From a phage, in the NCBI GenBank assembly GCA_024683775.1, contig GCA_024683775.1_4106.1: a DNA stretch of 64,000 nucleotides. One strand, written 5' to 3'. How positions within the stretch are numbered: position 1 is the first letter of the stretch; the number at the start of each line of letters is the position of its first letter. A program made the position numbers and the translations under genes. Under the pieces are notes generated by a model. It saw only the letters and a list, made by a program, of their open reading frames with translations, did no database searches and had not been told where the DNA came from. Below, piece by piece: positions 28,571-45,312 of the stretch.

Positions 28571-29399
28571 TGAGTACTAGAGTGTAATAGAGTACAGGAA
28601 TGTGCTCGTTTAATCAAGAACGTAGCAGTACTGCCCCAAAAGTATTCAGTACTGAAGGTGTCGATATGCCACTAAGTAGGCAGAGGAAGTCTGCCGTACT
28701 TTGTAGTTTCCAAGCTCCTTTTCCATTTTGCAAATTACATCAAATGTAATCAAAAGTAATCACGCAATGATTAGTACTGAATTATTACTTTCACCTTAAT
28801 TTCAATTACCCTTTTACCCTTCGGGGTAAAATTCAATTACCCCTTGAGGCTCCAGCAAAAAGTTGGTTAGTACTCCATCCTAAATCTCGATCCTAAAAAT
28901 TTTGGAGTACCTATGAAATAAAAGTTGGATCTTCGAAAGTTGAAATTTACGTTGGGACGTTTATGATTTGTGGGATATAATGATGTTTGTAGTCGGGTAG
29001 TTCTCAAGAATATCAGTACTGAATGGTGAAAGAAAGTTATTGACATTATGATTCAGTACTGTATAATGTTCTACATAGGGTGATGAGTTGCTGCGAACAA
29101 TTCATTTACTCTACCTCCTGTCGTGAGACAGTACAGAAAAGATAGTTCCTCCTGTGGTGGTACATCTTTTTGAACCTCATATGAAAATCGTAATAACAGT
29201 ACTGATATTAACAGAATGGTATCAGTACTGATTTTAATCTAAAGCATTATGCCACCAGCACAAGCTGGTGGATTCCCTCTAACAGTATTCAGTACTACAT
29301 GATAGTCTTCATCCTCCTAGGGTAACATAGTGAGGGCTATGATGGCAGTACTGAATACTCCCTTTCAAAAGATAGATCTATGGTATAGTACTGACGGAT

Positions 29400-29590
29400 T
29401 TTGGGTGTAGTTACCCTGGATGGATTTTGGGCGTAGATATGTCTAGCCCTCCAGAAGTCTGGAAGTAAAGATGGCTATCCATCTAGACGGCTAAACGGCT
29501 AGATTTCTGGATGGCTGGATGGCTAGACGTTTGGACGGCTAAACTGCTAGATGGTTACACGTCTGGAAGTATAGACGGCTAAATCAAAAT
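29400..29590. repeat. cluster of short direct repeats (GGATTTTGGG[TC]GTAG; ACGGCTAAA; GGCTAGA; TCTGGAAGTA)
   Basis: Multiple 7-15 bp units repeated 2-4 times each; non-coding context. Confidence 0.5.
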
Positions 29591-30201
29591 TTTATTTTGT
29601 TTTTTCCAATAGTTCCCCTACCGCGTGGGGATAGTTTCCCCGCAGTATCTGGCGTTAGATTTTTCTGAATCTGGAATCATTATCTTATAAACTGGGGGCA
29701 ATGTCAACGACCTGGACGGATATTTTTAAAAATTTTTTCAGTACTGAATTTTGGGCGTAACTATGCACCCGGTGGGCTTGAGTCTTTCTCGACTTGATGG
29801 AACTATTATACAGTACTGAAAAAATAAAGCAATACCCTGGAAGCAAAAAAGTTTTAATTAATTTGCTTGCTATCCTGGGCCGGACTATGGTACTATATTT
29901 CAGTACTGAGAAAGTGCGTTTACCTGCTAGGGTGCGGGAGTGTATCCTTTTTTTATATCTTGAATTTTGGGCGGATCTTCCCACCCCCTGGGGTATCCGC
30001 TTTCTCGCGTCTATGTAGTAATTATACGCTTTTTCAGGATCAAGTCAATACCTAAAAACAAAATAATTGAAAATAATTTAACGCGTTTAAACGGCCTGTA
30101 AAGCCCTGGAATGATTGGAATGGTGCAAATGTATAGCTTATGTGTATTAATGCGTTAGAATGCGTCTGAGGCCGTTTTACGGGGTATAGGGATGATTTAG
30201 T

Positions 30202-30355
30202 GGATTGATTCAGTACTGAATAATAGTACTCCTATATAGAAAGATAGTTCCCCTGGATTGATTCAGTACTGAATAATAGTACTCCTATATAGAAAGATAG
30301 TTCCCCTGGATTGATTCAGTACTGAATAATAGTTCCCCTATATAGAAAGAAAACT
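30202..30355. repeat. three tandem direct repeats of 53 bp
   Basis: Unit GGATTGATTCAGTACTGAATAATAGTACTCCTATATAGAAAGATAGTTCCCCT at 30202, 30255 and (degenerate) 30308. Confidence 0.8.
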
Positions 30356-30381
30356 ATTTTAAAAGTATTTGTAGAAAGTAC

Positions 30382-30409
30382 TTGCACCGTACTGATAAAA
30401 GCGTATAAT
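30382..30409 (+). promoter_or_regulatory. early promoter (conserved type)
   Basis: AGTACTTGCAC -35-like (TTGCAC 30382-87), 16-bp spacer, TATAAT 30404-09, then GTTTTACATC start region. Confidence 0.65.
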
Positions 30410-30423
30410 GTTTTACATCGAGA

Positions 30424-30440
30424 GCGGGAACACTTCCCGC
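30424..30440 (+). promoter_or_regulatory. conserved GC-rich 5'UTR stem-loop
   Basis: GCGGGA-ACACT-TCCCGC immediately downstream of promoter start region and upstream of SD/ATG 30465. Confidence 0.6.
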
Positions 30441-30464
30441 TACACATTACGAGAGATTAAAACG

Positions 30465-30827
30465 ATGGCGACTCAAATCAATAAAATTATTGCTAACCTG
30501 GTTAACTTCCGCGACGAGATGAAAGATCTTCCGGCGGCAACGGTTAAAACTCACATTGACGCATACCGCGAACTGATTAAAATGCTGCCGCTTAAGCGTG
30601 AACAATACGCCGCTACCGTGATGCTTGATGCGATGATCCATAAGATGATCTCAAATGATTTGACGATGGTTTATCAGTATATGGGTGAAAATTTCGCGGT
30701 GTGCAGTAAGCCAGTACCAGGGATGGCAACAACTGAGGAATTGCACGGCTTAAACTTAAAACAAGATGCATGGGATAATATGCCTCGTTTCCTGGTATGG
30801 GCTGACAGTGGCAAAATTTACAAATAA
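30465..30827 (+). CDS. hypothetical early protein (120 aa)
   Basis: Start at ATG 30465; the tracked N-terminal extension MFYIESG... is translation of the promoter -10/hairpin. Confidence 0.7.
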   Translation: MATQINKIIANLVNFRDEMKDLPAATVKTHIDAYRELIKMLPLKREQYAATVMLDAMIHKMISNDLTMVYQYMGENFAVCSKPVPGMATTEELHGLNLKQDAWDNMPRFLVWADSGKIYK

Positions 30828-30841
30828 GTTTAATAAAGTAC

Positions 30842-30869
30842 TTGCAAACTATGTTTAATGGCGTATAAT
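30842..30869 (+). promoter_or_regulatory. early promoter (conserved type)
   Basis: TTGCAA 30842-47, 16-bp spacer, TATAAT 30864-69, GTTTTACATC, then stem-loop GGGGAATAGTTCCCC. Confidence 0.65.
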
Positions 30870-30919
30870 GTTTTACATCAGGTGGGGAATAGTTCCCCAC
30901 TATATAAGAGGATTAAAAA

Positions 30920-31159
30920 ATGGCTAAATCAAAAAAGTTCTTAGGTCACAAAAACAAAACTCATTGGAATGTAAGCCTTTGGATTAATAACGATGAGGGA
31001 TTGTATCGGTTGGCCCTGGATTTTATTAACGACAACACTAATCGCAATGATGCGGCCCGTCATATGATGTTATTTTTAGAACAGACTGGACAAGATAAAA
31101 CACCGGACGGATTCAAATATAGCACTACTGCGATCCGTGCGGCAATGGTTGGAATGTAA
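30920..31159 (+). CDS. hypothetical early protein (79 aa); paralog of 32960
   Basis: SD AGAGGA; shares GHKNKTHWNVSLWINN and PDGFKYSTTAIRAAMVGM with 32960 ORF. Confidence 0.7.
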   Translation: MAKSKKFLGHKNKTHWNVSLWINNDEGLYRLALDFINDNTNRNDAARHMMLFLEQTGQDKTPDGFKYSTTAIRAAMVGM

Positions 31160-31244
31160 TAGAATTTATTTAAAGTACTATCATTTTTTGCGATAGTACT
31201 TTATAATAGTGTTTTATTCATACACCAACGATAAGGGCAACAGC

Positions 31245-31511
31245 ATGAATATTAAGTATTTTGCGACGCGTGAACAAGCTCGGATCGCCGCACGCCAGGA
31301 CGGGGCAACGTTTAAAGATATGGGCGTACAATCGGAACGTGGTAAACGTTGGGCCATTGTAAAGCGTAGTACCGCCAGATCATTACAGTACTGGTTAGCG
31401 GCCTTAAAAAGTCCCGATAGTGTATCGCGTCGAGTGGTAGAAATAAAGCTCGACCGAAAGGGCAACCGCGTGACCGTGTACCGTACTAAAAAGATTGCAG
31501 TACTTGAATAA
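31245..31511 (+). CDS. hypothetical early protein (88 aa); paralog of 43401
   Basis: Start at ATG 31245 with AAGGG SD; shares FATREQARI..GETFKDMG..RKGNRVTVY with 43401 ORF. Confidence 0.7.
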   Translation: MNIKYFATREQARIAARQDGATFKDMGVQSERGKRWAIVKRSTARSLQYWLAALKSPDSVSRRVVEIKLDRKGNRVTVYRTKKIAVLE

Positions 31512-31598
31512 AAAGTACTTGCTAACTATGTTTAAAGGCGTATAATGTTTTACATCGAGAGCGGGAACTCTTCCCGCCTATAACCTGGAGTAATAAAA

Positions 31599-31829
31599 AT
31601 GACTAATATGTATATGACTGAAGTTAAAACCGTAAAAGATACTACCACGAATAAAACTACTTACTTACAGCGGATCTGTGGTGTATGGCAACGTATCAGC
31701 AAATCAAAGTACTTTAAATTAACATCATATGCAAATCGTTCGGATTCATTCAGTACTGAAATAAAAGGTAATAAAGTACACCAATACGGCACTTATTATT
31801 ATTACAGCCTGGACGCGATTGCAGTATAA
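31599..31829 (+). CDS. hypothetical early protein (76 aa)
   Basis: Promoter + stem-loop GCGGGAACTCTTCCCGC upstream; SD GGAG. Confidence 0.65.
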   Translation: MTNMYMTEVKTVKDTTTNKTTYLQRICGVWQRISKSKYFKLTSYANRSDSFSTEIKGNKVHQYGTYYYYSLDAIAV

Positions 31830-32257
31830 GCAGTTTACAAATCTTTACAATTGCCGGTATTGACTTATTTTGTCAGTACTGGCATAATGTATTCATTGGC
31901 AGATAAGCCGTAGCCCATAGGGTGCGGGAGTGTATCTATAGAAAAATTAGTTTAGTATAGTTACAATTGTGCACCCGGTGGGTTAGCTGTTGTCATGGGG
32001 TATATTATGCCAGTACTTGATAATGCTGTCAATACTTTTTTTTTACTATTCAGTACTGAAAACTATTTTTAAAAAGTACTTGTAAACTATGTTTAAAGGC
32101 GTATAATGTTTTACATCAGGACGGGGAACGAAATAAGTAACTTCCCGTTAAGTAGCCCAGGAGTAAGGCACACGAAAAACTCCCCTGATAAAATAGTTTG
32201 ACAATAGAAAGTAAAAGCGTATAATACTTACATCAACTACTGAATGAGGGTTACAAA

Positions 32258-32869
32258 ATGAAAACTATCACTACTACTACTTTTGTTATGGCTTTTTCTG
32301 AACTGAACGCAGAACAAAAAACGGCGGCTATCGAACTGGTTCGGGATCGTGAGCGTTCATGTGAGGATAATTTCTTTGCTGAGGGCGTTATCGAGTACTA
32401 TAAAGAAACAGTACTACCAGAATACGGCATAGATGAAGCTGAATTGCAATACAGTGGTTTTTGGTCGCAAGGTGACGGTGCATCAATCAGTACTGACCAC
32501 GTTGACGCAGTGAAGTTTTTACGCAAGGTAAGAGCATTAACTAAGTATCGCTCAATCCGTCACTTGCTGAATGAAGATGATTTGGCGATGAGTGTAGAAC
32601 GTTCACACTCTCGCTACGCACACGAAAACACGGTAAGCGGGTACATTGAATCGGCTTACACTGATTTAACCGCAAAACAAGAAACGTTAGTTAATGAGCT
32701 TGAGGAACTACTCACTGAAACTATTCGTGAATTGTCCCGCAAGTTGTACCGTGATTTAGAGAATGCATATGAGGATCAATTCACTACTGAAAACATTACG
32801 GCACTGATTGAGGGTAACGAATATCAATTCAATGTTATTGATGGCGTAGTGGAATCAATCGAATATTAA
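32258..32869 (+). CDS. hypothetical acidic early protein (203 aa)
   Basis: ORF with two upstream promoter-like boxes (32075-32110 and 32195-32230); SD GAGGG. Confidence 0.7.
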   Translation: MKTITTTTFVMAFSELNAEQKTAAIELVRDRERSCEDNFFAEGVIEYYKETVLPEYGIDEAELQYSGFWSQGDGASISTDHVDAVKFLRKVRALTKYRSIRHLLNEDDLAMSVERSHSRYAHENTVSGYIESAYTDLTAKQETLVNELEELLTETIRELSRKLYRDLENAYEDQFTTENITALIEGNEYQFNVIDGVVESIEY

Positions 32870-32881
32870 TTTAAAAAGTAC

Positions 32882-32909
32882 TTGCAAACTAAGTTTAAAA
32901 GCGTATAAT
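32882..32909 (+). promoter_or_regulatory. early promoter (conserved type)
   Basis: TTGCAA 32882-87, spacer, TATAAT 32904-09; stem-loop GCGGGGAATGGTTCCCCGC 32923-41. Confidence 0.65.
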
Positions 32910-32959
32910 ACTTTATATCGAGGCGGGGAATGGTTCCCCGCTCAAACGAGGATTTAAAA

Positions 32960-33199
32960 ATGGCTAGTACTAAAACTTACAACGGACACAAAAACAAAAC
33001 TCATTGGAATGTAAGCCTTTGGATTAATAACGGTGAGTCATTGTATCGGCTTGCACAAAGTTGCATCGCACAAAGTAGAACTAAAGATATTGCTGCGGAA
33101 TGTATGTACCGCAGATTAAAAGCCAACGGTACTACTACAACGCCGGACGGCTTTAAGTATAGCACTACTGCGATCCGTGCTGCAATGGTTGGAATGTAA
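32960..33199 (+). CDS. hypothetical early protein (79 aa); paralog of 30920
   Basis: Start at ATG 32960; conserved C-terminus identical to 30920 ORF. Confidence 0.7.
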   Translation: MASTKTYNGHKNKTHWNVSLWINNGESLYRLAQSCIAQSRTKDIAAECMYRRLKANGTTTTPDGFKYSTTAIRAAMVGM

Positions 33200-33256
33200 T
33201 ATTCAGTACTGAGATAATGGCGGGTAATAGTTCCCGCCTTTACTGAGGGTTATCTA

Positions 33257-33517
33257 ATGAGTAAAGTAATTAGCTATACAGCACTAAGCAAGACATTATC
33301 TATTAGCCAGTGCACCGATGGTTATTGGCTATTTGATGAAACGCGTGGCATGAATTTAGCCATGCGTGCAAAAACTGCTGAGGCGGCGTATCTTGAAGCA
33401 TTGGAATACTACCAGGAACGTTTAAAGGAAGTAGAAGAAGATTATAAAAGCCTCAAAGCGAAAGTAGATCATTTCGTCGGTCAATTCATCGAGGAAGACG
33501 ACGACAAACAATATTGA
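33257..33517 (+). CDS. hypothetical early protein (86 aa)
   Basis: ORF preceded by stem-loop GGCGGGTAATAGTTCCCGCC 33219-38 and SD GAGGG. Confidence 0.65.
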   Translation: MSKVISYTALSKTLSISQCTDGYWLFDETRGMNLAMRAKTAEAAYLEALEYYQERLKEVEEDYKSLKAKVDHFVGQFIEEDDDKQY

Positions 33518-33603
33518 AAAAGTACTTGCAATTAGTTTTCAGTACTGTATAATGGTTTACATCAAAGGGAGAAATGGTTCTCCCTGGTAATGAGGAAAAT
33601 AAA

Positions 33604-33825
33604 ATGGCTAATATCACTACTCTTTCCCAACTGGAAGCACTGGTTAAATCTATGCGGGAACATGCCGACAAAATCGGCGTACAAGATCCAGCCGTTTGCT
33701 TCTGCGACGAATTGAATGATGATACCCTGGTAATAGCAGAAGTCCAGGACGTTTCTAACTATTCCTCGCGTTACACTGGCGGCGTAGCAAATAAAGGCGA
33801 CTTCTGTTTATACCTTACAAAATAA
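33604..33825 (+). CDS. hypothetical early protein (73 aa)
   Basis: Start at ATG 33604 after promoter and stem-loop GGGAGAAATGGTTCTCCC; SD GAGGAAAA. Confidence 0.65.
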   Translation: MANITTLSQLEALVKSMREHADKIGVQDPAVCFCDELNDDTLVIAEVQDVSNYSSRYTGGVANKGDFCLYLTK

Positions 33826-33828
33826 CAA

Positions 33829-33860
33829 CGCGGGGAGATAATAACTCCCCGTTACTTTTT
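33829..33860 (+). terminator. rho-independent terminator
   Basis: CGGGGAG-ATAATAA-CTCCCCG stem-loop followed by TTACTTTTT. Confidence 0.6.
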
Positions 33861-34068
33861 CAGTACTGAATCATTTAATAGACGGATCTCGGCACCCGGT
33901 GGGTTAGTGACTGTTTCGTCTTGATGTAGTAATTATGCCAGTACTGGATGCACTTGTCAACAACTATTTTTCAAATACTTTTTATTAAAATACTTGCAAT
34001 TAGTTTTTAAACGCGTATAATGTTTTGCATAGGGGGAGCGGTTCCCCTGGTAACTAAGGAATAATAAA

Positions 34069-34305
34069 ATGCTTGAACAAATCAAATCAACGTCTGCGAA
34101 TGTAACGGGAACGGTAGTACACTTTACTAGTGATGAATCGCGGGGTGTACCCTATTGTGCTGTACATGTAAACACTGAGGGTAACTACTGGTTTACGGTT
34201 TACGGATCATATTCATTTGGACGACCAGGGCATCAAAAAATTCTGGATAAAGTACAGCCAACGGGTAAAAATATCACTGCTGAAATGTTTTATAAAAAAT
34301 CATAA
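34069..34305 (+). CDS. hypothetical early protein (78 aa)
   Basis: Promoter + stem-loop GGGGGAGCGGTTCCCC upstream; SD AAGGAA. Confidence 0.65.
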   Translation: MLEQIKSTSANVTGTVVHFTSDESRGVPYCAVHVNTEGNYWFTVYGSYSFGRPGHQKILDKVQPTGKNITAEMFYKKS

Positions 34306-34389
34306 AGTACTTGATAATAGTTTTTAGTACTGTATAATATTTTACATCGCAAGGGGGAGCGGTTCCCCCTGGTAACTAAGGATAATCAA

Positions 34390-34689
34390 ATGAAAATTAC
34401 AATCATCGCCCTGGCTTTATCTGTTTCCTCTTTCGCTGTTAATGCGTCATTAGATGTAAGTAGTGAAAAATTCATTCAGTGCACTGTTGCAATGACCGAT
34501 GAAAGTACTGGCGAGATTGTATTAAAGGATCTGGAGATTCAGCCGGAAGCATTTAAAAACGGCCCGTTCCATGAAGAAGACGAAAACGGTAGCACGACAA
34601 TTTATTATGATGCCAGTACTAAACGCGGTTCGGTCACTGTAATGGATACCGAGAAAGTAACTCATACCGGCGTTATTAATTGCCGTTGA
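34390..34689 (+). CDS. small secreted/periplasmic protein (99 aa) with N-terminal signal peptide
   Basis: N-term MKITIIALALSVSSFAVNASL: basic residue, hydrophobic core, A-x-A-like cleavage site (VNA-S); promoter + stem-loop upstream. Confidence 0.65.
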   Translation: MKITIIALALSVSSFAVNASLDVSSEKFIQCTVAMTDESTGEIVLKDLEIQPEAFKNGPFHEEDENGSTTIYYDASTKRGSVTVMDTEKVTHTGVINCR

Positions 34690-34710
34690 TAGATACTACG
34701 GGGTAACATC

Positions 34711-34941
34711 ATGACTAAGCGAATTGTTTTACTTAACGAAAGCAGTACTACACAACTACTTAACGCCGTGCATTATGATATTGAAACGAGCGTTAATCTT
34801 ATCAGTACTGTCGTACTGTTGGACACTGGAAAGGTCGCCAATGATAAAGCGATTGCAGGTATACTAACGGATCTTGAGCCTGGTAGCAGTGCACCAATAA
34901 CGTTAAATGGTAAAGTGTTTAATATTTTACTCACTGATTAA
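34711..34941 (+). CDS. hypothetical early protein (76 aa)
   Basis: ORF with SD; followed by terminator. Confidence 0.6.
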   Translation: MTKRIVLLNESSTTQLLNAVHYDIETSVNLISTVVLLDTGKVANDKAIAGILTDLEPGSSAPITLNGKVFNILLTD

Positions 34942-34947
34942 GTACAT

Positions 34948-34976
34948 AGCCCACCTGGTGGGCTTTTTTGTTTTTG
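34948..34976 (+). terminator. rho-independent terminator
   Basis: AGCCCACC-TGGTGGGCT palindrome followed by TTTTTTGTTTTTG. Confidence 0.75.
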
Positions 34977-35174
34977 TAGTATCGTAGTACTGAGATACTT
35001 TGAAAATAGTTTTAAGAAAGTAGTTGACATTACCGCAGAAAAGCGTAGAATGTATTACATCAAGACGGGGAGCACTAAGTAGACCGCCAGTAAGTCGAAC
35101 GAAAAACTGGACACGTCGAGAAAACTTTGATACACTAATAAACGTAAACTAAACTTTAATTGAGGATTTATAAA

Positions 35175-35657
35175 ATGGCTAATGTAAAATCATTCATCAA
35201 AGCACTGGTAGCAAATGAAACTAACGTCGCGGCTGAGATCCTGGCTGAACTGGATAACGATACCATGAAAGCGGTACGCAATAATTTTAACATCGCGTAC
35301 AGTACTGCGAAAGAACTACAAGCAAATAAAGCGGCAGAAATTGAAGCGGCAAAGGCGGCCCGTGAAGCAGAACTACAAGCAACAATCGAAAGTATTCAGG
35401 CGGCAGTAGTTGGATTGGATCTGGAAGTAGTTACAGAGATGGCACAAAAAGCCCTGGCGGTTAAGTATGGGGAAGACAAGCCAGAAGTAAAAGCCAAAAA
35501 ATGGATTCAGGAACGCGTAGCGGTAGTACTGGACAACGGGGAAGAATATCTGATTCCGGTGCGTGGTAACTGCATTGCGGTAGTACTGGATGCGATTAAC
35601 TCCAGTGGTATGACTCGCGAGGAATGGATCAAAGCTCATCGCAAAGTTGAAGCATAA
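35175..35657 (+). CDS. hypothetical early protein (160 aa), alanine/glutamate-rich, predicted helical
   Basis: Start at ATG 35175 with SD GAGGA; followed by terminator. Confidence 0.7.
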   Translation: MANVKSFIKALVANETNVAAEILAELDNDTMKAVRNNFNIAYSTAKELQANKAAEIEAAKAAREAELQATIESIQAAVVGLDLEVVTEMAQKALAVKYGEDKPEVKAKKWIQERVAVVLDNGEEYLIPVRGNCIAVVLDAINSSGMTREEWIKAHRKVEA

Positions 35658-35678
35658 CAATTAAAGTACTGAATCACT

Positions 35679-35710
35679 AGCCCACTGTATAAGTGGGCTT
35701 TTTTGTGTTT
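35679..35710 (+). terminator. rho-independent terminator
   Basis: AGCCCAC-TGTATAA-GTGGGCT stem-loop followed by TTTTTTGTGTTT. Confidence 0.75.
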
Positions 35711-35941
35711 ATCGTTTACCATGCCACCAGCACCGCCTAGAAACGATTCTAACGCATTAAACTGATTATCTGATGCATTGCCCTAGCTGGTGGCGTTAAG
35801 GCTGTAAGAACGCGATTGAGAGCGTTTAAAGTATTTTGCAAAAAGTAATAAAAAGTACTTGCACGATTAAGAGATTAGCGTATAATGTTTTACATCGAGA
35901 GGGGGAAACGGTTCTCCTTCCAAATCAAAGGAATTAAAACA

Positions 35942-36169
35942 ATGGCTATCGTAATCACTCGCGTAACTGGTACTACTGGCAATTCTTCTACTGTTGCTGT
36001 AATTACTAATAAGAAAGGTGCGGAATTGCATTTTGCAATGGATAAATGGGCCGTTAATGAGTTCGGTCAGTGGGCAAGTGTAGCATACATTGAAACCTAT
36101 CAAGTGCCGTCGATTAGTTTAACTGATTTGGGCGTTGAGCGTATCCTTTGCCTGGATGAATTAAATTAA
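35942..36169 (+). CDS. hypothetical early protein (75 aa)
   Basis: Start at ATG 35942 after promoter + stem-loop; tracked extension MFYIERGK is promoter-derived. Confidence 0.65.
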   Translation: MAIVITRVTGTTGNSSTVAVITNKKGAELHFAMDKWAVNEFGQWASVAYIETYQVPSISLTDLGVERILCLDELN

Positions 36170-36255
36170 AAAAGTACTTGCAAAGTAAATCAGATAAAGT
36201 ATAATACATTACATCAAGGGGAGAAATGGTTCTCCCTGATAATGAGGAAACTAAT

Positions 36256-36399
36256 ATGAAAACTTGTCAATGTGGTAAAAAATCTATTACTGGTTTAAAG
36301 CGGGGCGTTGCACTTTGCCAGTACCATTATAATTTACAAGTATGGGGTAAAGAATGGGCCGACCAGGTGGAAGCAGCAAAGAAAGCAAAAAGTAAGTAA
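36256..36399 (+). CDS. small cysteine-containing protein (47 aa)
   Basis: ORF below track cutoff found by reading; preceded by promoter, stem-loop GGGAGAAATGGTTCTCCC and SD GAGGAAA. Confidence 0.5.
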   Translation: MKTCQCGKKSITGLKRGVALCQYHYNLQVWGKEWADQVEAAKKAKSK

Positions 36400-36417
36400 A
36401 ATATTATCACAGTACTA

Positions 36418-36446
36418 TTGACATAGTTTGATAGTACTGGCATAAT
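36418..36446 (+). promoter_or_regulatory. sigma70 consensus-like promoter
   Basis: TTGACA 36418-23, 17-bp spacer, CATAAT 36441-46. Confidence 0.65.
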
Positions 36447-36489
36447 AGATTTTATCAAGACGACACATATTAATTTAAGGAATACTAAA

Positions 36490-36813
36490 ATGGCTAAAAC
36501 TATCATTAACACCGTTTCCCTGGCTGCAATCCGTGCAATCAATGTTGACGGTAAACGTTGGACTGATTCATATGGCAATACTTATCATTCTTGTCATGTA
36601 AGCGTTGAACTGGATAACGGTTTGAATGATCTGGCGGTTGAATCATTTACTTATGGCTATGAAGATGCATATCAACAAACGGCGTTAGATCTCTTAAAGG
36701 AATCAGTAGACGGGCTTAATACTGATGACACCTCCCTTACTCGTTTGTGCAATGATCTTAATATCCCGTTGCATTGTACTGTACAGAATGTTAAACGCAA
36801 AAAAGATCTTTAA
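36490..36813 (+). CDS. hypothetical early protein (107 aa); paralog of 42978
   Basis: Shares RWTDS.GNTYHSC.VS...FTYGY and C-terminal VKRKKD with 42978 ORF; SD AAGGAA. Confidence 0.7.
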   Translation: MAKTIINTVSLAAIRAINVDGKRWTDSYGNTYHSCHVSVELDNGLNDLAVESFTYGYEDAYQQTALDLLKESVDGLNTDDTSLTRLCNDLNIPLHCTVQNVKRKKDL

Positions 36814-36893
36814 TTAGCTTTACTTTATGCAGATACTTTGATATAGTGTCTGCATAGGGGAAAGAAATTAAATTAACTTAAGAGGAACGTATA

Positions 36894-37163
36894 ATGAAAA
36901 ATATCAGTACTTTAATCGACGCAGGTACACATGTTCGGCGGTCTATGGTTGCAACCAGTACTACAAAACAAGTACCAAGCGGTTATCTTGTATTTGTGCA
37001 CGATGGTAAACTCCTGGAACGTTCAATCAATTTTGATGTTAAAAACAATTGCCGTTTTATTATCTTTAAGCGTGAGCAATATAAAATTGATTTACCAGCA
37101 AAGCCCATAAGCGGGGCGTACAACGTGCAATCATTGTTTGAACGTCAACCATACACCTATTAA
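36894..37163 (+). CDS. hypothetical early protein (89 aa)
   Basis: ORF with SD AGAGGAA. Confidence 0.6.
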   Translation: MKNISTLIDAGTHVRRSMVATSTTKQVPSGYLVFVHDGKLLERSINFDVKNNCRFIIFKREQYKIDLPAKPISGAYNVQSLFERQPYTY

Positions 37164-37214
37164 TCAAAACATCGTTAGCGGTCGATTTAGGCCGCTTATA
37201 TTGGGGATTATACC

Positions 37215-37487
37215 ATGAACGTTAATCAAGTACTGAATGAGATCGAAAGCATCATTAAACCGATGAAGCGTACTGATGCTATGTTAACACCGGAAGAATG
37301 CCGCCTTTATGAGCGTTACAGCGTCGAACAAGTCCAGGCGATGGCTATGGCTACCCCAGCCGTTAAACCGCCTGAGAATGCGTTACAGGACGTTACAGGG
37401 GATTATATCATCAATCCAGTACTAGGGAAGATGGCTGCAATCACCGAAGATCAACAAGACTACTTAAGCCAGTACTTAAAAGGTTAA
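37215..37487 (+). CDS. hypothetical early protein (90 aa)
   Basis: ORF with SD GGGGA. Confidence 0.6.
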   Translation: MNVNQVLNEIESIIKPMKRTDAMLTPEECRLYERYSVEQVQAMAMATPAVKPPENALQDVTGDYIINPVLGKMAAITEDQQDYLSQYLKG

Positions 37488-37492
37488 TTAAT

Positions 37493-37702
37493 ATGCTTAC
37501 TGTACAGGATAAGATCGACATCTTAAAGGTTAATATGTATGTGATTGATGCAGTACCTGGTAAAGTATTTGCATACGATGACAGTACTGTAAGCGATTTC
37601 TACTATAGCCAGGCCGTGGGGGATCTTTCTGTACAGTCGGTTATTGAAAACGTAGTTAATGCAGCGTATGAGCATTTACTTTCAAATAGTACTTGCAATT
37701 AG
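37493..37702 (+). CDS. hypothetical early protein (69 aa)
   Basis: ORF 5 nt after previous stop; 3' end overlaps next promoter. Confidence 0.55.
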   Translation: MLTVQDKIDILKVNMYVIDAVPGKVFAYDDSTVSDFYYSQAVGDLSVQSVIENVVNAAYEHLLSNSTCN

Positions 37703-37720
37703 TTTTTAAACGCGTATAAT
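37693..37720 (+). promoter_or_regulatory. early promoter (conserved type)
   Basis: TTGCAA 37693-98, spacer, TATAAT 37715-20, GTTTTACATG; stem-loop GGGGAGAAATGATTCTCCCC 37733-52. Confidence 0.65.
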
Positions 37721-37771
37721 GTTTTACATGAAGGGGAGAAATGATTCTCCCCACTAATTAAGGAATATGAA

Positions 37772-37918
37772 ATGAAAGCATCAAAAAAGAGTACTAACAA
37801 GAAAGCACGTTCAACCTTAGATGGGGTATTCCCTTTACGTTTCGTTGATGAAGTAGTTTCCTACCCGCCGGGCCTTACTCCTGAGATGGTAGAAAGTTTG
37901 CGTAAATCTAAAAAATAG
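37772..37918 (+). CDS. small basic protein (48 aa)
   Basis: ORF below track cutoff; promoter + stem-loop + SD AAGGAA upstream. Confidence 0.5.
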   Translation: MKASKKSTNKKARSTLDGVFPLRFVDEVVSYPPGLTPEMVESLRKSKK

Positions 37919-37999
37919 TACTTGCAATTAGTTTTTAGTACTGTATAATGTTTTACATGAAGGGGAGAAATGATTCTCCCCAATAACAGGAGAAACAAA

Positions 38000-38152
38000 A
38001 TGAAACAATACAACGCTCGGTTTGATGTTACTATCGGTAACGGCAAAGGTCAATTCTCTTTCAGTACTCGCAAAAGTTATACAGAAAACTTCCTGCGTAA
38101 TTGTGCACTGACCGCCGCTCAAATTAAACATTATTTTCAGGCTAAAAAATGA
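38000..38152 (+). CDS. small hypothetical protein (50 aa)
   Basis: Start at ATG 38000 after promoter + stem-loop + SD AGGAGAAA. Confidence 0.55.
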   Translation: MKQYNARFDVTIGNGKGQFSFSTRKSYTENFLRNCALTAAQIKHYFQAKK

Positions 38153-38238
38153 GATCATTAGCTTATTACAGTTCGGCCCTGGTCGGTGCATTGATCGCGG
38201 CGTTGTTAGTAACCTATCTATTCTTTATGGTGATTTAA
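38149..38238 (+). CDS. putative 29-aa hydrophobic micro-protein
   Basis: ATGA overlap with upstream stop; sequence MRSLAYYSSALVGALIAALLVTYLFFMVI is a single TM-like helix. Confidence 0.35.
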   Translation: MRSLAYYSSALVGALIAALLVTYLFFMVI

Positions 38239-38382
38239 ATGAATCCAACAGGTTTAAACTATAAAAGTTGTTCGGCGTTTACGAAAGCAAATAAAGCGAA
38301 TGCACGTAAAGCGAAAGTACAGGAATACATCAAGCAAGGCATGACGCGAAAGGCGGCGATTCTAAAAGCTAAAAATAAATGA
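38239..38382 (+). CDS. putative 47-aa basic micro-protein
   Basis: TAAATG overlap with upstream stop; lysine-rich. Confidence 0.3.
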   Translation: MNPTGLNYKSCSAFTKANKANARKAKVQEYIKQGMTRKAAILKAKNK

Positions 38383-38384
38383 AA

Positions 38385-38420
38385 AAAGTGGTTGACTCCG
38401 GTCAGCCATTTTGCTATTAT
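38385..38420 (+). terminator. conserved hairpin of the recurrent intergenic module (copy 1)
   Basis: Near-palindrome GTGGTTGACTCCGGTCAGCCAT followed by TTTGCTATTATAT. Confidence 0.5.
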
Positions 38421-38593
38421 ATATTCATTGAGAGATAGCTCACTAGCCCACAGGGTGCATAAGTGTATCTATTATATGAGTATTGAGTACTGAAAACTAT
38501 TTGATAAAAAGTACTTGCAAACTATCTCAATAAGCGTATAATGTTTTACATCGAAAGGGGAAACGGTTTCCCCTGGTAATAAGGAAACGAATC

Positions 38594-38935
38594 ATGACTA
38601 TCTCAATTGCTCAATCTAACTTTGAAAATGAAATCATCGCCCAGGCACTGCGTTTAAATGATGGTCGGGCCGAAATTAATTACGGTTTCAATTCAGGCGG
38701 TTGCGAAAACTATCAGTACTTTGTAACGGCTGATGGCGGTGTCCTGGGTATCAATACAGTTATTGTAAACATCCAAAAAATTAATTTCAATGATCCAGAC
38801 GATAGCCAGTTTTACATCACTGGCGTAGACGTGAACTATGAGGATGACTCACTAACTGATGATTACACTGGCGAGCGGTTAGAAAGTGCATACGGTGAAG
38901 ATGATTATCAGTCCGGTCCAGAAGATTTCGAATAA
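38594..38935 (+). CDS. hypothetical acidic early protein (113 aa)
   Basis: Promoter + stem-loop GGGGAAACGGTTTCCCC + SD AAGGAAA. Confidence 0.7.
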   Translation: MTISIAQSNFENEIIAQALRLNDGRAEINYGFNSGGCENYQYFVTADGGVLGINTVIVNIQKINFNDPDDSQFYITGVDVNYEDDSLTDDYTGERLESAYGEDDYQSGPEDFE

Positions 38936-38948
38936 TATAAAAAAATAG

Positions 38949-38977
38949 TTTGACAATAGATTATAGTACTGTATAAT
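38949..38977 (+). promoter_or_regulatory. sigma70 consensus promoter
   Basis: TTGACA 38949-54, 17-bp spacer, TATAAT 38972-77; followed by GGGGAGAATAGTTCTCCCC stem-loop. Confidence 0.7.
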
Positions 38978-39028
38978 GTTTTACATGAAGGGGAGAATAG
39001 TTCTCCCCACTAACAGAGAGAAAACAAA

Positions 39029-39241
39029 ATGGCTAATATCTGCACTGTACTGAAAAATGCAAAACAAGTTTTATTTTCTGATCACGATCATTTAAACAAG
39101 GATATTACTGGCGTTCGGAATATCAAAGATGTAAAAAGTGTTATGGGTATCTATTGCAATATGAAACGTGTCGGCACGTTCGGCGATAAAGTACTATACC
39201 AGGCAGGGGATTACAATTTTACACTGACTATCATTAACTAA
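39029..39241 (+). CDS. hypothetical early protein (70 aa)
   Basis: ORF with promoter, stem-loop and SD upstream. Confidence 0.65.
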   Translation: MANICTVLKNAKQVLFSDHDHLNKDITGVRNIKDVKSVMGIYCNMKRVGTFGDKVLYQAGDYNFTLTIIN

Positions 39242-39324
39242 AAATATTATCACAGTACTATTGACATAGTTTTATAGTACTGACATAATAACTTTTATCA
39301 ACTACACTACTAAGGAATTAAAAA

Positions 39325-39504
39325 ATGGCTATCATCGCAAAAACTGAAATCGTTGGTCTGGATTCTATCATCATGACGTTTGAAGATCAAAAAGGTATGT
39401 ATGTAGTTTCATATGGTGATTATGTTCGGGAGTATGAAACGGTAGACGAAGCCTTTGAAAGTTATATTCGCCAGGTGAATAAAGCATACGACGACTACCG
39501 CTAA
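39325..39504 (+). CDS. hypothetical early protein (59 aa)
   Basis: ORF below track cutoff; TTGACA-N17-CATAAT promoter at 39261-89; SD AAGGAA. Confidence 0.5.
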   Translation: MAIIAKTEIVGLDSIIMTFEDQKGMYVVSYGDYVREYETVDEAFESYIRQVNKAYDDYR

Positions 39505-39594
39505 AATATATTACCAGTACTATTGACATTGTTTGATAGTACTGTATAATAAGTTTTATAAACAGTAGTTAACTTAACCTAAGAGAGAAATAAA

Positions 39595-39738
39595 ATGATC
39601 GCACTGGATTCATTCATCGACGCAGTACTGGCAAAAACTGGCGAGGATCTGACCGCAGAACAATACGCGATGATCGAGCAATGTCAGCAAAACGGTAAAT
39701 CGGTGAAAGATACTGTTAAGATTATCCGCAAGATGTAA
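39595..39738 (+). CDS. hypothetical early protein (47 aa)
   Basis: ORF below track cutoff; TTGACA..TATAAT promoter at 39523-50; SD AGAGAGAAA. Confidence 0.45.
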   Translation: MIALDSFIDAVLAKTGEDLTAEQYAMIEQCQQNGKSVKDTVKIIRKM

Positions 39739-39837
39739 TATTATAGCCCACTGGTTAACGCTGGTGGGCTATAATCATTTACCCTATACAATGCCAGTAC
39801 TCAACCGTTTATCTCGTTAGAATGCGTTACAGGACGT

Positions 39838-40041
39838 TTGACAATGATTAGCATGAAATCAGTACAAAAACAAATAGAAACATTATCAAAAATTAAACGT
39901 AAACAGTACTCGTTAGAATATACAATCAATGGTAACTATCATCTAATGAAAGAGAATAATTTCATTGTCATTGATGAATCATTGCAAGTTATTAGTATAG
40001 TACTGAAAGCATTAATCAATGACAGAAAAAAATTAAAATAA
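39838..40041 (+). CDS. hypothetical early protein (67 aa)
   Basis: ORF; weak SD. Confidence 0.45.
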   Translation: MTMISMKSVQKQIETLSKIKRKQYSLEYTINGNYHLMKENNFIVIDESLQVISIVLKALINDRKKLK

Positions 40042-40369
40042 TCTATTGACAATATCCTCCAGTACTGGCATAATACTTACATCAAGACGAGAACGTCACT
40101 AACCCATAGGGTGCACAAATGTAACTATATAATATCGATCAATAAATGATCAAAAAGTACTGGATCAATTTAGCATAAGGCGTATAATTCTGATCAATTC
40201 TTGATCAAAGGCAATATACGCAGTTGAATTTATATAGACAGTACAAAGGCGTTACTATCCGTGGTAATGCTGGTGGATATGTAGTATCATATGGTTTGAA
40301 TAAGATAAACACTAGTAGTATTATTGTAGCATTACAGTACTATAGTATTTTTATAATGAGGTTAAAATA

Positions 40370-40627
40370 ATGGCAGTAGGATACGCGAAAGACGGGGCCG
40401 AACAAGACGAGATTCACGCAGTGATTCAGGCAGCCGTTAACCACGCTAGAAAGCAAATTAACGCACAAAGAGAATCACTGGTACATTGCCTCGACTGCGG
40501 CGATAAAATCCCTGAGAATCGACGCCAGGCCGTTATAGGGTGCATGTATTGTATTACTTGCCAGGAGGATCATGATAGTACTTTTAAAAGAGATCCGCGT
40601 AATTGTTGGCATAGATCTATGAGATAA
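40370..40627 (+). CDS. TraR/DksA-like C4 zinc-finger protein
   Basis: C-x2-C-x17-C-x2-C (CLDCGDKIPENRRQAVIGCMYCITC) with the conserved IP.[AE]RR.A motif typical of TraR/DksA zinc fingers; SD GAGG. Confidence 0.6.
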   Translation: MAVGYAKDGAEQDEIHAVIQAAVNHARKQINAQRESLVHCLDCGDKIPENRRQAVIGCMYCITCQEDHDSTFKRDPRNCWHRSMR

Positions 40628-40690
40628 AAAGTATTGACAGTACTGAAAGATAGTGTATAATGTTTTATATCTTAACTGAGGATAGTAATC

Positions 40691-41047
40691 ATGGGAATAC
40701 AACATATCACGCGTACTACTGACAATGGCGAGATCACTGGTTATCAGGTACAGGGCAAAGTAGCACAATTGCAGTACTGGTTTGTTAAACGTGGAATCAT
40801 TGCACCGGATCTTGATTATGACCGTGTAGCGTTTATTGATTCTCTTTATGTTGATCCTGATAGTCGGGGCAATGGTGAAGGTAACGAATTAATGAATGCC
40901 TTTATTGATGCCGCCGATGATTCAGATTGTATCATCTTAGAATGCGATACGGGAGAAGATAACGCCTTTAATCTTAAAGAATGGTACGAAGGTTTCGGAT
41001 TCGAGGTACTGATCGATAGTGAATATCCTATCATGATTTTATCATAG
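40691..41047 (+). CDS. hypothetical protein with weak GNAT-acetyltransferase-like motif
   Basis: VDPDSRGNGEGNELM resembles the GNAT motif A ([QR]-x-x-G-x-[GA]); TTGACA..TATAAT promoter at 40633-60. Confidence 0.4.
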   Translation: MGIQHITRTTDNGEITGYQVQGKVAQLQYWFVKRGIIAPDLDYDRVAFIDSLYVDPDSRGNGEGNELMNAFIDAADDSDCIILECDTGEDNAFNLKEWYEGFGFEVLIDSEYPIMILS

Positions 41048-41125
41048 TACTTGCATTTAGTTTTCAGTACTGTTATAGTACTTGCATCAAGGGGAAACAT
41101 CTTCCCCTACTAAGAGGAAATAAAA

Positions 41126-41314
41126 ATGGAAAACTTATCAAGTATTTTAGTACAAGATGATTTCGGTAATCCTGGAAGTGCTATCATTGTTCGGGGCAAT
41201 AAAGCAACGTTTGTTATTGCTGGTGGACCCGTACAGCGTAGCATTAAAAATAATGCTGTTACCATTAATAATGTACGCTATCGCTTAGATAAAGAATTAA
41301 TTCATAAACTGTAA
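41126..41314 (+). CDS. hypothetical early protein (62 aa)
   Basis: Promoter-like box + stem-loop GGGGAAACATCTTCCCC + SD GAGGAAA. Confidence 0.6.
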   Translation: MENLSSILVQDDFGNPGSAIIVRGNKATFVIAGGPVQRSIKNNAVTINNVRYRLDKELIHKL

Positions 41315-41399
41315 AAAAGTACTGGACAATAGATTATAGTACTGTATAATAGTTTACATGAAGGGGAGAAATGATTCTCCCCACTAAGAGGAAAGAAAA

Positions 41400-41612
41400 A
41401 TGCAAGGTCAACTAATCGTTCGTAAATGGTCTGATACTAACGAAAAACCGTGGGATGTACAATACATCGCCCCAAATGGTGAATCCAGATATCAACCAGG
41501 TGTAACGCATAGTACTGAGCAATTCGCCGCCGCTCATCGCGAACGTCTGTTACAATCAATGCAGCACGGTTCCGGTGAAAAATTCATTCAGGATCATTGG
41601 CTGAAAGATTAA
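41400..41612 (+). CDS. hypothetical early protein (70 aa)
   Basis: Promoter + stem-loop GGGGAGAAATGATTCTCCCC + SD. Confidence 0.65.
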   Translation: MQGQLIVRKWSDTNEKPWDVQYIAPNGESRYQPGVTHSTEQFAAAHRERLLQSMQHGSGEKFIQDHWLKD

Positions 41613-41698
41613 AAAGTACTTGCACAGTACTGAATAAAGTGTATAATGTTTTATATCGGAAGGGGAATAGTTCCCCTCCTAACAAAGAGGAAAGTATA

Positions 41699-41872
41699 AT
41701 GGTCCAGGTAGAATTAACAGTACTGAAAGATCTGTTTTATCGGATTGGTACTACTGGCGAATATCCGAAGGGTGATAATGCAAAACTTTACGTATCACTC
41801 GACTTATGGCAACGCGAACAATTAGCAACGGCCTGGCGTAAAGGCAAAGCAGATAGCGAGGTGAAAGCATGA
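41699..41872 (+). CDS. hypothetical early protein (57 aa)
   Basis: Start at ATG 41699 after promoter + stem-loop GGGGAATAGTTCCCC + SD AGAGGAAA. Confidence 0.55.
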   Translation: MVQVELTVLKDLFYRIGTTGEYPKGDNAKLYVSLDLWQREQLATAWRKGKADSEVKA

Positions 41873-42018
41873 AAGAATTCTTATTTGAAGTAGTGTTTCA
41901 AGGTGTCGGTAATAACCAACTGATTCGATCAAGTGGTTATAATGTTAACCAGGCATGGAATAACATTAAACAAATGTACCCGAACGCTATCACATATCGC
42001 AACCCGAAAGAAGTTTAA
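41869..42018 (+). CDS. hypothetical early protein (49 aa)
   Basis: ATGA overlap with previous stop; ORF below track cutoff. Confidence 0.4.
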   Translation: MKEFLFEVVFQGVGNNQLIRSSGYNVNQAWNNIKQMYPNAITYRNPKEV

Positions 42019-42030
42019 AAATAATTGAAA

Positions 42031-42056
42031 AAGGGATTGACTCCGGTCAGTCCCTT
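42031..42056 (+). terminator. conserved hairpin of the recurrent intergenic module (copy 2)
   Basis: AAGGGATTGACTCCGGTCAGTCCCTT near-palindrome followed by TGCTATTATATA. Confidence 0.5.
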
Positions 42057-42343
42057 TGCTATTATATACGCATAGAAACAAATTAGCCCACCGGGTGCAT
42101 AAATGTATCTATTGTTTGCTGGTGGCTAGTACTATCAAGTACTGAAAACTATTTTTAAAAAAGTACTTGCAAAGTATCACGATAAGCGTATAATGTTTTA
42201 CATCAGGACGGGGAACGAAATAAGTAACCCCGTTAAGTAGTCCAGGAGTAAGACATACGAAAAACTCCCCTGATAAAATAGTTTGACAATAGAAAGTAAA
42301 CGAGTATAATACTTACATCAACCACTGATAAGGAAACATTAAA

Positions 42344-42619
42344 ATGCGGACTTTACTTACAGCTAACGAAATCGAGCAAGTACTGACTACTAATCTGGAA
42401 CAATGGAAACGTGAAGCAGATATCCAGGCGGTTCAATGCCTTAACGATAAGTTAACGCCAGATGACTTAAGCACGATTGTTGATCCACAATTTTATGAAG
42501 ATATTCACGACACGTCTTTAAGCGTCGAGGATGTACTTGATAAGCACTACATTGATACTGATTTACATGTTTACGGTCGTAAAAACTTTATCACTATTCA
42601 CGACATTTACAATACTTAA
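42344..42619 (+). CDS. hypothetical early protein (91 aa)
   Basis: Two promoter-like boxes upstream (42165-42200, 42280-42315); SD AAGGAAA. Confidence 0.65.
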   Translation: MRTLLTANEIEQVLTTNLEQWKREADIQAVQCLNDKLTPDDLSTIVDPQFYEDIHDTSLSVEDVLDKHYIDTDLHVYGRKNFITIHDIYNT

Positions 42620-42707
42620 GTATTGACAAAGTATCTTAGTACTGTATAATAGTTTACATCAAGTGAGGGGAAACGGTTCCCCTCCTAACAAAGAGAGAGA
42701 AATTAAA

Positions 42708-42890
42708 ATGGCTAAGTGCACTATCTGTAAGAAAGAAATCGTATTAGTTCCAAGTGCCCGTGAACGTGCCGCTCGGTTCGGTGGCAAAGCGTCAGACTAT
42801 ACAAAAATGTTTACTGCCCATGCAGCTTGTCAAGTAGCAAAACGTTCACAAGAAAGCGTAGAATTAATGCGTAAACTTTCCAAAAAATAA
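42708..42890 (+). CDS. hypothetical early protein (60 aa), cysteine pair CTIC + CQ
   Basis: Start at ATG 42708; promoter + stem-loop GAGGGGAAACGGTTCCCCTC upstream. Confidence 0.6.
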   Translation: MAKCTICKKEIVLVPSARERAARFGGKASDYTKMFTAHAACQVAKRSQESVELMRKLSKK

Positions 42891-42977
42891 GTATTGACAA
42901 AGTATCTTAGTACTGTATAATAGTTTACATCAAGCGAGGGGAATGGTTCCCCTCCTAACAAAGAGAGAGAAATAAAA

Positions 42978-43301
42978 ATGGCTATGATCCTTACCCAGAA
43001 AGTAGAACTGAAAATTGTAACCTCCTTTGACATTAAAGTTAATCGGTGGACTGATAGCCACGGCAATACTTACCACTCCTGCTACGTGTCCGCATTGATT
43101 GGTGATCGCTGGGAAGACCTGGGACACGAAACCTTTACATACGGTTACGGCACACAAGGTGAGTACACGGGTTTAGAAATCATTAAGGAAACTGTAATAG
43201 GTTTCAACCCGAAAGAGAAAGTACTACACAGAATTGAGAAAGAGATCAACAAAGAAATTACAGTTCGCTACTACGATGTAAAACGTAAGAAAGACATGTA
43301 A
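42978..43301 (+). CDS. hypothetical early protein (107 aa); paralog of 36490
   Basis: Promoter + stem-loop + SD; similarity to 36490 ORF. Confidence 0.7.
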   Translation: MAMILTQKVELKIVTSFDIKVNRWTDSHGNTYHSCYVSALIGDRWEDLGHETFTYGYGTQGEYTGLEIIKETVIGFNPKEKVLHRIEKEINKEITVRYYDVKRKKDM

Positions 43302-43400
43302 TAGAATCCATTTAAAGTACTATTTGACATTGCCCAGATAGTACTTTATAATAGACTCTAACTTGTAGTACTAATTAACTTAACTAATAGGATGTACACC

Positions 43401-43796: not shown

Positions 43797-43818
43797 TAAC
43801 TTGCAGTACTAACAACAC

Positions 43819-43843
43819 GGCGGGATCAGTTCCCGCCTTTTTT
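43819..43843 (+). terminator. rho-independent terminator
   Basis: GGCGGGA-TCAGT-TCCCGCC followed by TTTTTTA. Confidence 0.7.
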
Positions 43844-43857
43844 ATAGGACAAACAAA

Positions 43858-45301: not shown

Positions 45302-45312
45302 AAAAGATTAAA

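Follow-up and report, generated by a model that had tools for sequence, protein, structure and literature searches.

A small, putatively secreted protein encoded in the terminal repeat of an Asteriusvirus jumbo phage and its tentative role at the host envelope

RESULTS

The gene and its predicted export signal

The 64,000-nucleotide stretch of phage DNA studied here (GenBank assembly GCA_024683775.1, contig GCA_024683775.1_4106.1; "the window") derives from an Asteriusvirus jumbo coliphage of the PBECO4/121Q/phAPEC6 group and carries, at 34390..34689 on the plus strand, an ATG-initiated open reading frame (ORF) of 99 amino acids whose translation begins MKITIIALALSVSSFAVNASLDVSSEKF. A first-pass annotation had proposed that this ORF encodes a small secreted protein of the early region, and its coordinates, strand, start codon, length and quoted sequence all proved correct. 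A Shine-Dalgarno AAGGA, as read from the sequence, lies at 34378..34382 (+), 7 nucleotides before the ATG. Since a tblastn search with a distant family member matched 46 phage records, and since the ratio of nonsynonymous to synonymous substitutions (dN/dS) ranges from 0.03 to 0.23 in 15 pairwise comparisons among six Asteriusvirus orthologues, the gene is a real coding sequence under purifying selection. Within the same six orthologues, dN in residues 20-58 is 1.4-2.8x that in residues 59-99. Identity of the window protein to its orthologues is 79% for 121Q and 67% for EJP2; most neighboring proteins encoded in the same terminal repeat (below) are 80-98% identical to their 121Q counterparts, which places the secreted protein at the divergent end of this set without making it an outlier.

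The first 19 codons (34390..34446, +) specify a putative Sec signal peptide, MKITIIALALSVSSFAVNA, with predicted cleavage by signal peptidase I (SPase-I) after A19. It consists of the n-region MK, the h-region ITIIALALSVSSFAV and the c-region V-N-A, with S20 at position +1, and so combines the charged n-region, the 10-15-residue h-region, the small residues at -3 and -1 and the cleavage site 15-30 residues in by which Sec/SPase-I signals are recognized. The h-region (I3-V17) comprises 15 uncharged residues with a peak 11-residue Kyte-Doolittle mean of 2.4; the N-terminus contains neither a twin arginine (RR) nor a lipobox, and there is no cysteine before residue 31. When our signal detector was run on the 149 non-overlapping ATG ORFs of at least 45 amino acids in the window, it flagged two, namely, the gene under study and an ORF of 81 amino acids at 56554..56799 (+). 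The latter has a very hydrophobic N-terminus (MLNFLNFLIVLCIVLGIAPFVLYF...) without a positive n-region and probably encodes a small membrane protein outside the repeat with an anchor-like N-terminus, which leaves the 99-residue protein with the only canonical Sec/SPase-I signal among the 149 ORFs. Its signal score was reached by 15 of 20,000 shuffles of the protein, and this low frequency, together with the 2 of 149 ORFs flagged, indicates that the signal peptide is real and not a chance effect of composition.

The signal is also kept across the protein family described below, where all 17 members, down to about 30% identity, either pass the detector or have a lipobox despite their differing N-terminal sequences, and the depositors of the Klebsiella phage Muenster homologue annotated it, from InterPro/SignalP, as a "putative secreted protein." Export of the product as a small periplasmic protein via Sec is thus well supported in silico. 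The Sec signal peptide and periplasmic destination put forward in the first-pass annotation hold up at this level, while its mature length of ~78 residues needs correction to 80 after cleavage at A19. The mature protein (34447..34689, +, including the stop codon) would have a mass of 8.8 kDa and a pI of 4.5, with 15 acidic and 7 basic residues.

A family of exported proteins in phages and one prophage type

The only significant library match of the window protein was to PHROG 31669 (E = 2.1e-61; residues 1-98 on profile positions 1-98 of 99), a family of unknown function on which our literature searches found no experimental work. The weak matches from the library searches with the window protein and its relatives, all below the cutoffs, were DUF4969 (E = 0.04), BhsA, TrbK, OsmE and Cor, most of them restricted to the signal or lipobox region. 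A word-indexed search returned orthologues only (67-97% identity), whose alignment shows no variation in the signal peptide or at C31 and C98. When the orthologue alignment was used with HMMER against 1.84 billion representatives, 15 proteins were retrieved at E <= 1e-3; one 1,099-residue outlier was excluded, and the others, of 96-149 residues, each have a signal peptide or a lipobox. In an alignment of 17 sequences, C31, G94 and C98 are invariant, and the block Y-H-E-E-D-x-T-G-S-T-T ... G-(K/R)-G-S-(I/V)-T-(I/V)-M-D is strongly conserved, appearing in the window protein as FHEED-xx-GSTT (60-70) and KRGS-VTVMD (78-86). All mature family sequences contain two or four cysteines, an even count that is expected for periplasmic disulfides.

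All Asteriusvirus genomes matched by tblastn contain the gene. Relatives with 30-37% identity are found in the Klebsiella phages Muenster (Alcyoneusvirus), where the gene lies in the PhageTerm-predicted terminal repeat, and fENko-Kae01, where it likewise lies in a terminal repeat; in the Salmonella phages Munch, 7t3 and SE_PL; in Erwinia phage Hallingskeid; in the Vequintavirinae (SSBI34 and A73); and among prophage lipoproteins. In phage A73, as in a 153-kb phiTE-like metagenomic contig, the relative sits within an array of small ORFs. Several repeat genes are common to the window and Muenster, and the gene for the secreted protein stands between different neighbors in the two, from which we conclude that it moves as a cassette of its own. 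Of the distant relatives, most have either an N-terminal extension of 25-55 residues, which in some includes a second pair of cysteines, or a lipid anchor; the window protein, composed of a signal peptide and a beta domain, is the minimal form of the family.

The bacterial matches all fall in one rare prophage type of E. coli, E. fergusonii and Citrobacter, which has a lambda-like head module and is present in only 2 of 5,426 complete E. coli genomes. It encodes a large serine recombinase, a terminase of the GpA type, a portal of the Phage_portal_2 family and a capsid protein fused to an S78 protease. These prophage relatives are 129-153 residues long and often lipoproteins (lipobox L-[ST]-G-C), and the A/S/T at position +2 predicts, by the +2 rule, that they are sorted to the outer membrane. 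Their genes lie two to four genes upstream of the small terminase gene, beside one or two genes for other exported proteins. Of the two loci from the E. coli / E. fergusonii prophage, one (L008, 7049-8459) has the family member as the last of three consecutive exported proteins, after a 126-residue lipoprotein and a signal-peptide protein of ~129 residues, and in the other (L004, 7624-8462) a 125-residue signal-peptide protein is the only adjoining one seen next to the family member. We also considered a lysis cassette at the prophage copies and found no support for it, as the two or three adjoining genes encode exported proteins, not holins or endolysins, and none of these neighbors matched a PHROG.

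Predicted fold of the mature protein

AlphaFold2, run with an alignment of eight sequences, modeled residues 31-99 with a predicted local distance difference test (pLDDT) score of 91-94 in most 10-residue blocks and 85 in one, while residues 1-26, i.e., the signal peptide and linker, scored below 50. The model contains six strands (29-37, 43-50, 60-64, 67-74, 79-85 and 90-98) and one short helix (52-55), so that the mature protein is predicted to fold as a six-strand beta meander or barrel spanning residues 29-98. The HEED/GSTT block forms the hairpin between beta3 and beta4, and C31 lies where beta1 begins and C98 where beta6 ends, so placed that a disulfide between them may close the small barrel. 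Solved structures offered no clear counterpart: the best Foldseek match in the PDB stood at E = 0.034, short of the E <= 0.001 threshold, a PDB sequence search had no match at E <= 10, and a fold search of BFVD returned family members only.

Location in the direct terminal repeat

Some 30 jumbo phages of Escherichia and Salmonella, members of the genus Asteriusvirus with genomes of 320-386 kb (PBECO4, 121Q, phAPEC6, fEgEco12, vB_Ec-M-J and others), share 94-99% identity with the region, WPEC5 being the best match (98.7%). In vB_Ec-M-J, the orthologue occupies 6067-6366, within the annotated 21,525-bp direct terminal repeat. Mapping of this repeat onto the window by homology places its ends at ~28,675 and ~49,555, defining a repeat of ~21 kb (28675..49555, no strand), and the window sequence continues without a break where the repeat adjoins the unique right end of the genome. 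The gene is therefore located ~5.7 kb from the left edge of the repeat, i.e., from a physical genome end. For fEgEco12, a terminal repeat of 20,993 bp was confirmed by restriction mapping, and the gene is listed twice, as Gp10 and Gp624, in the supplement (PMC13070987). Lying in a direct terminal repeat, the gene has two copies per packaged genome, and with the repeat at both ends, a copy should be carried on whichever end enters the cell first.

Promoter cassette and early expression

Upstream of the gene, we identified a sigma-70-type promoter (34311..34338, +) with 11 of 12 consensus positions, comprising a -35 element TTGATA (34311-34316), a 16-nucleotide spacer and a -10 element TATAAT (34333-34338). 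It is preceded by the A-rich/AAAGTAC element common to the promoter cassettes of the repeat and followed by a GC-rich leader hairpin (34349..34373, +; core stem GGGGGAG/UUCCCCC) near the predicted 5' end of the mRNA. Taken alone, this hairpin has a folding energy of -14.1 kcal/mol and a z of -1.2; no T-run follows it, and the Shine-Dalgarno sequence and AUG remain unpaired. An equivalent hairpin is present in some 23 further leaders of the repeat. Searching with the pattern TTGNNN, 16-17 nucleotides, TA[T/G]AAT yielded 35 plus-strand matches between 29,040 and 48,642, all inside the repeat and about 30 of them with a leader hairpin, and three matches outside the repeat, all without a leader. 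The cassette, AAAGTAC-TTG(C/A)(A/C)A-N16-TATAAT-GTTTTACATC-GC-rich hairpin-...AAGGA...ATG, with TTGCAA or TTGACA as the -35 element, precedes almost every small gene of the repeat.

Evidence on timing comes from related jumbo phages. In PA5oct, RNA sequencing (RNA-seq) showed that the terminal-repeat genes are highly transcribed early (PMC7318152), and for CBB, stretches that combine short ORFs with RpoD-like promoters, the repeat included, were proposed to be early (PMC5259590). From the location in the repeat and the promoter class, in combination with the PA5oct data and the CBB prediction, we infer on good grounds that the gene is expressed early. It fits the early terminal-repeat gene class of Rak2-like phages in both location and promoter class, with the timing drawn by analogy to PA5oct and CBB, and the first-pass placement in an "early region" agrees with a gene that has its own sigma-70 promoter of a class seen with its leader only in the repeat.

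DISCUSSION

A candidate for superinfection exclusion at the envelope

Being the only canonically secreted product in a 64-kb window that covers the whole repeat, the protein is the clearest candidate there for a function at the envelope. We propose, with due reserve, that it is a small envelope-acting early protein of the Asteriusvirus phage, which would be made within minutes of infection, exported, cleaved and accumulated in the periplasm. The C31-C98 disulfide would lock its fold, the conserved, negatively charged YHEED-x-TGSTT beta-hairpin would bind a partner, and the faster-evolving residues 20-58 may tune specificity. The infected cell might thereby be protected at the level of the envelope, that is, by superinfection exclusion, if the protein either neutralized the peptidoglycan-degrading enzyme of incoming virions or occupied an envelope component needed for DNA entry. 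To our knowledge, the early exported proteins of virulent coliphages with a known function act in superinfection exclusion or sensing (T4 Sp, Imm and RI; T5 Llp), and it is for this reason that exclusion or protection at the envelope appears to us the most likely role, although we hold it tentatively. The proposal is one of analogy with T4 Spackle, T5 Llp/Cor and the pair formed by soluble PliC and the lipoprotein MliC, and the protein is a member of none of these families. A structural role is unlikely, since gp530c, the homologue in phAPEC6, appears in neither the text nor the tables of the publication on the 62-protein virion proteome.

Several points weigh against exclusion as the role. 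The family is linked to a function by neither homology nor experiment: Pfam, NCBIfam and PADLOC gave nothing above threshold for the window protein, and the library and PDB sequence searches were either empty or matched signal peptides only. The family is, moreover, common to phages with very different tails (jumbo myoviruses, Vequintavirinae and a prophage with a lambda-like head), which argues against the tail enzyme of one phage as the target and in favor of a target in the host envelope. As to the individual steps, the disulfide is deduced from the invariance of the cysteines, not from model coordinates; the early timing in the window phage comes from its promoter type and the RNA-seq of a distant relative; and the signal calls were made with our own rule-based detector, not SignalP. 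The last point leaves some room for a hydrophobic N-terminus that stays uncleaved, giving a bitopic inner-membrane protein, or for an ORF that is not expressed. Consistent with a membrane span, there is one 19-residue window with a Kyte-Doolittle mean of at least 1.8 (1.89, starting at residue 3); the h-region, however, has 15 uncharged residues, which is short for a span, and runs into a canonical V-x-A site, and the lipobox of relatives likewise implies release from the inner membrane. A dead ORF is in turn hard to reconcile with the strong promoter and Shine-Dalgarno sequence, the purifying selection and the wide conservation, and we judge this whole explanation very improbable.

Comparison with T4 Spackle

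The fEgEco12 orthologue g10 (XBS49092.1; L001, 3492-3791) is named "protein spackle" in GenBank, and a true homologue of T4 Spackle (gp61.3, PF25676, 6X6O) would be expected to inhibit a tail lysozyme likewise. Besides this label, the two proteins have in common a similar precursor length (99 versus 97 residues), a cleavable Sec signal, one cysteine pair, an acidic mature protein and predicted early expression, and both are carried by a virulent myovirus with a lysozyme in its virion. However, the label goes back to an HHpred match to 6X6O_A with E = 3.9 and a probability of 69.8 (supplement of PMC13070987). BLASTP of the window protein against T4 Sp (reference sequence from AF158101) gave no alignment at E <= 100, and hhalign of the family profile against T4 Sp aligned 14 signal-peptide columns only, with a probability of 24%. 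The Pfam model T4_Spackle (PF25676) did not match the window protein and matched one of 17 relatives at E = 0.27, and the PDB sequence search described above found nothing either. Finally, T4 Spackle is a compact alpha-helical bundle of 75 residues (PMC7677548), whereas the window protein is predicted to be all-beta. Taken together, these results refute homology, so that we give this explanation next to no chance, and the first-pass annotation was right to claim no sequence similarity to Spackle. At most, Spackle, which binds and inhibits the tail-spike (gp5) lysozyme stoichiometrically, serves as a functional analogy. The public label on the fEgEco12 homologue is unsupported and at risk of spreading, and it should not be propagated.

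Alternative partners and roles

Within the exclusion role, our confidence is split about equally between two mechanisms, one in which the protein inhibits a peptidoglycan hydrolase and one in which it masks a receptor or channel, so that either of them on its own is unlikely. In the former case, the protein would be a functional analogue of periplasmic peptidoglycan-hydrolase inhibitors, with a Spackle-like role and a PliC/MliC-like architecture, and its acidic hairpin might plug the active-site cleft of the lysozyme of a superinfecting virion or restrain the phage's own or the host's muramidase until lysis. Potential targets exist: a 96-kDa protein of the lysozyme family, gp241, whose gene lies close to that for the baseplate wedge, is part of the phAPEC6 virion, and Asteriusvirus genomes encode a lysozyme of glycoside hydrolase family 24 (GH24). 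Bacterial lysozyme inhibitors are mainly beta-sheet proteins that insert a loop between antiparallel strands, and the Spackle binding site on gp5 is a basic patch (PMC7677548); our protein is acidic and is predicted to consist of beta-sheet, in which a strongly conserved loop joins antiparallel strands. Like PliC and MliC, moreover, the family occurs in soluble and lipoprotein forms, and the features of a small periplasmic beta-sheet protein with a conserved loop are also those of PliG, PliI and Ivy. Yet none of 17 family members matched the Pfam models of MliC/PliC, Ivy, PliG or PliI at E <= 1, the phages that share the family have unrelated tails, and the protein is phage encoded, not host chromosomal. 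The MliC/PliC fold is an eight-strand barrel, as against six predicted strands here.

Masking would instead resemble the role of T5 Llp and of Cor from phi80 and N15: the protein might attach to an outer-membrane receptor from the periplasmic side, or to a component of DNA entry in the inner membrane, and so block later injection and protect progeny from debris. Llp and Cor are small, exported and phage encoded, with an early gene in T5, and they share with the prophage relatives of our family the (there predicted) state of outer-membrane lipoproteins; those relatives are also found among other exported genes of the "moron" type, and the distribution over phages with different tails would favor a host target. 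Lipoprotein forms of the family gave weak matches to the entry-exclusion protein TrbK (E = 0.01, below the cutoff) and to Cor (PHROG 1119, E = 8e-4), but both are confined to the signal peptide and lipobox region, with the Cor match of a prophage relative covering residues 1-36 only. The mature domain has no similarity to Llp or Cor, and the window protein, having no lipobox, would be soluble. A role in host periplasmic physiology apart from superinfection, e.g., as an inhibitor of a protease or nuclease, in interference with the envelope stress response or as an antiholin-like lysis-timing factor, seems to us less probable still. Early expression, export and conservation across several phage groups would suit it, the H-E-E-D cluster could be a site for a metal ion or for the basic surface of an enzyme, and the prophage gene lies near the terminase genes, just upstream of which lambdoid phages have their lysis cassette. 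On the other hand, no holin, endolysin or spanin is recognizable beside the prophage copies, whose neighbors are exported proteins and not holins with multiple transmembrane domains; the jumbo-phage gene lies in the early repeat, away from the late genes; and there is no similarity to known inhibitors.

Returning to exclusion at the envelope, it is tempting to speculate, though we would call it doubtful, that there is a new, structurally distinct family of periplasmic immunity proteins, with the window protein as its minimal member, in which a disulfide-locked six-strand beta domain with an invariant acidic HEED-GSTT hairpin blocks superinfection. Such a family might have been recruited independently by jumbo phages, on the terminal repeat that enters first, by the Vequintavirinae and, as an outer-membrane lipoprotein, by a prophage lineage, and its target would be conserved across the Enterobacterales. 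If so, Spackle or Llp would have a beta-fold counterpart in it. Confirmation of the exclusion role would bring a new fold to the very few periplasmic exclusion and inhibitor proteins characterized so far and would be relevant to phage cocktails that combine Asteriusvirus phages with others. Cell takeover by Rak2-like jumbo phages (350-380 kb, ~80% unknown genes) is almost uncharacterized, and the same applies to the roles of their terminal repeats with ~50 genes. The gene itself was already present in dozens of GenBank records as a "hypothetical protein," with one homologue annotated as secreted and one mislabeled as Spackle; what is new here is the wider family with its invariant features, its recurrent position in terminal repeats or early regions and, in prophages, in clusters of exported proteins, a predicted fold without solved relatives, and the refutation of the Spackle label.

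Other features of the repeat and the window

Downstream of the gene, an ORF of 76 amino acids (34711..34941, +) belongs to the same predicted transcription unit, a two-gene unit that is closed by an intrinsic-terminator-like hairpin, AGCCCACCTGGTGGGCT followed by TTTTTTGTTTT (34948..34972, +). This ORF has no signal peptide and no match in Pfam, PHROG, NCBIfam or PADLOC. We rejected it as a conserved operon partner, as 121Q lacks it and EJP2 has another ORF, of 89 residues, in its place, and it can therefore be no obligate partner; it is apparently also missing from the G17, Sharanji and SD phages, whose alignments are split in two.

Among the copies of the promoter cassette, the stem sequences of the leader vary while the hairpin itself is kept, and none is followed by a T-run. 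An Rfam scan of 28-52 kb found no family for the hairpin, and MAFFT/RNAalifold gave a poor consensus for the leader hairpins, with misaligned stems; the element could stabilize the 5' end of the mRNA or allow the early class to be shut off in a coordinated way. In the ORFs listed with starts at 33574, 36226 and 32930, and in similar ones, the ATG falls inside the leader hairpin (MVLPGNEENKM..., MVLPDNEETNM..., MVPRSNEDLKM...). Their real start is probably the next ATG after AAGGA, which would make the products ~10 residues shorter than listed.

Two further genes of the repeat have counterparts in Muenster, the ORF at 43858-44112 (+) being 65% identical to Muenster_041, a putative YafQ-like ribonuclease toxin according to its depositors, and that at 44660-45301 (+), which had no Pfam match, being 34% identical to Muenster_043, their putative protein kinase. 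Elsewhere in the window, ~18 consecutive, paralogue-like ORFs of 264-449 amino acids occupy 962-23470 on the minus strand, and two of the three tested match RCC1-like repeat / beta-propeller families (PF25390, PF00415).

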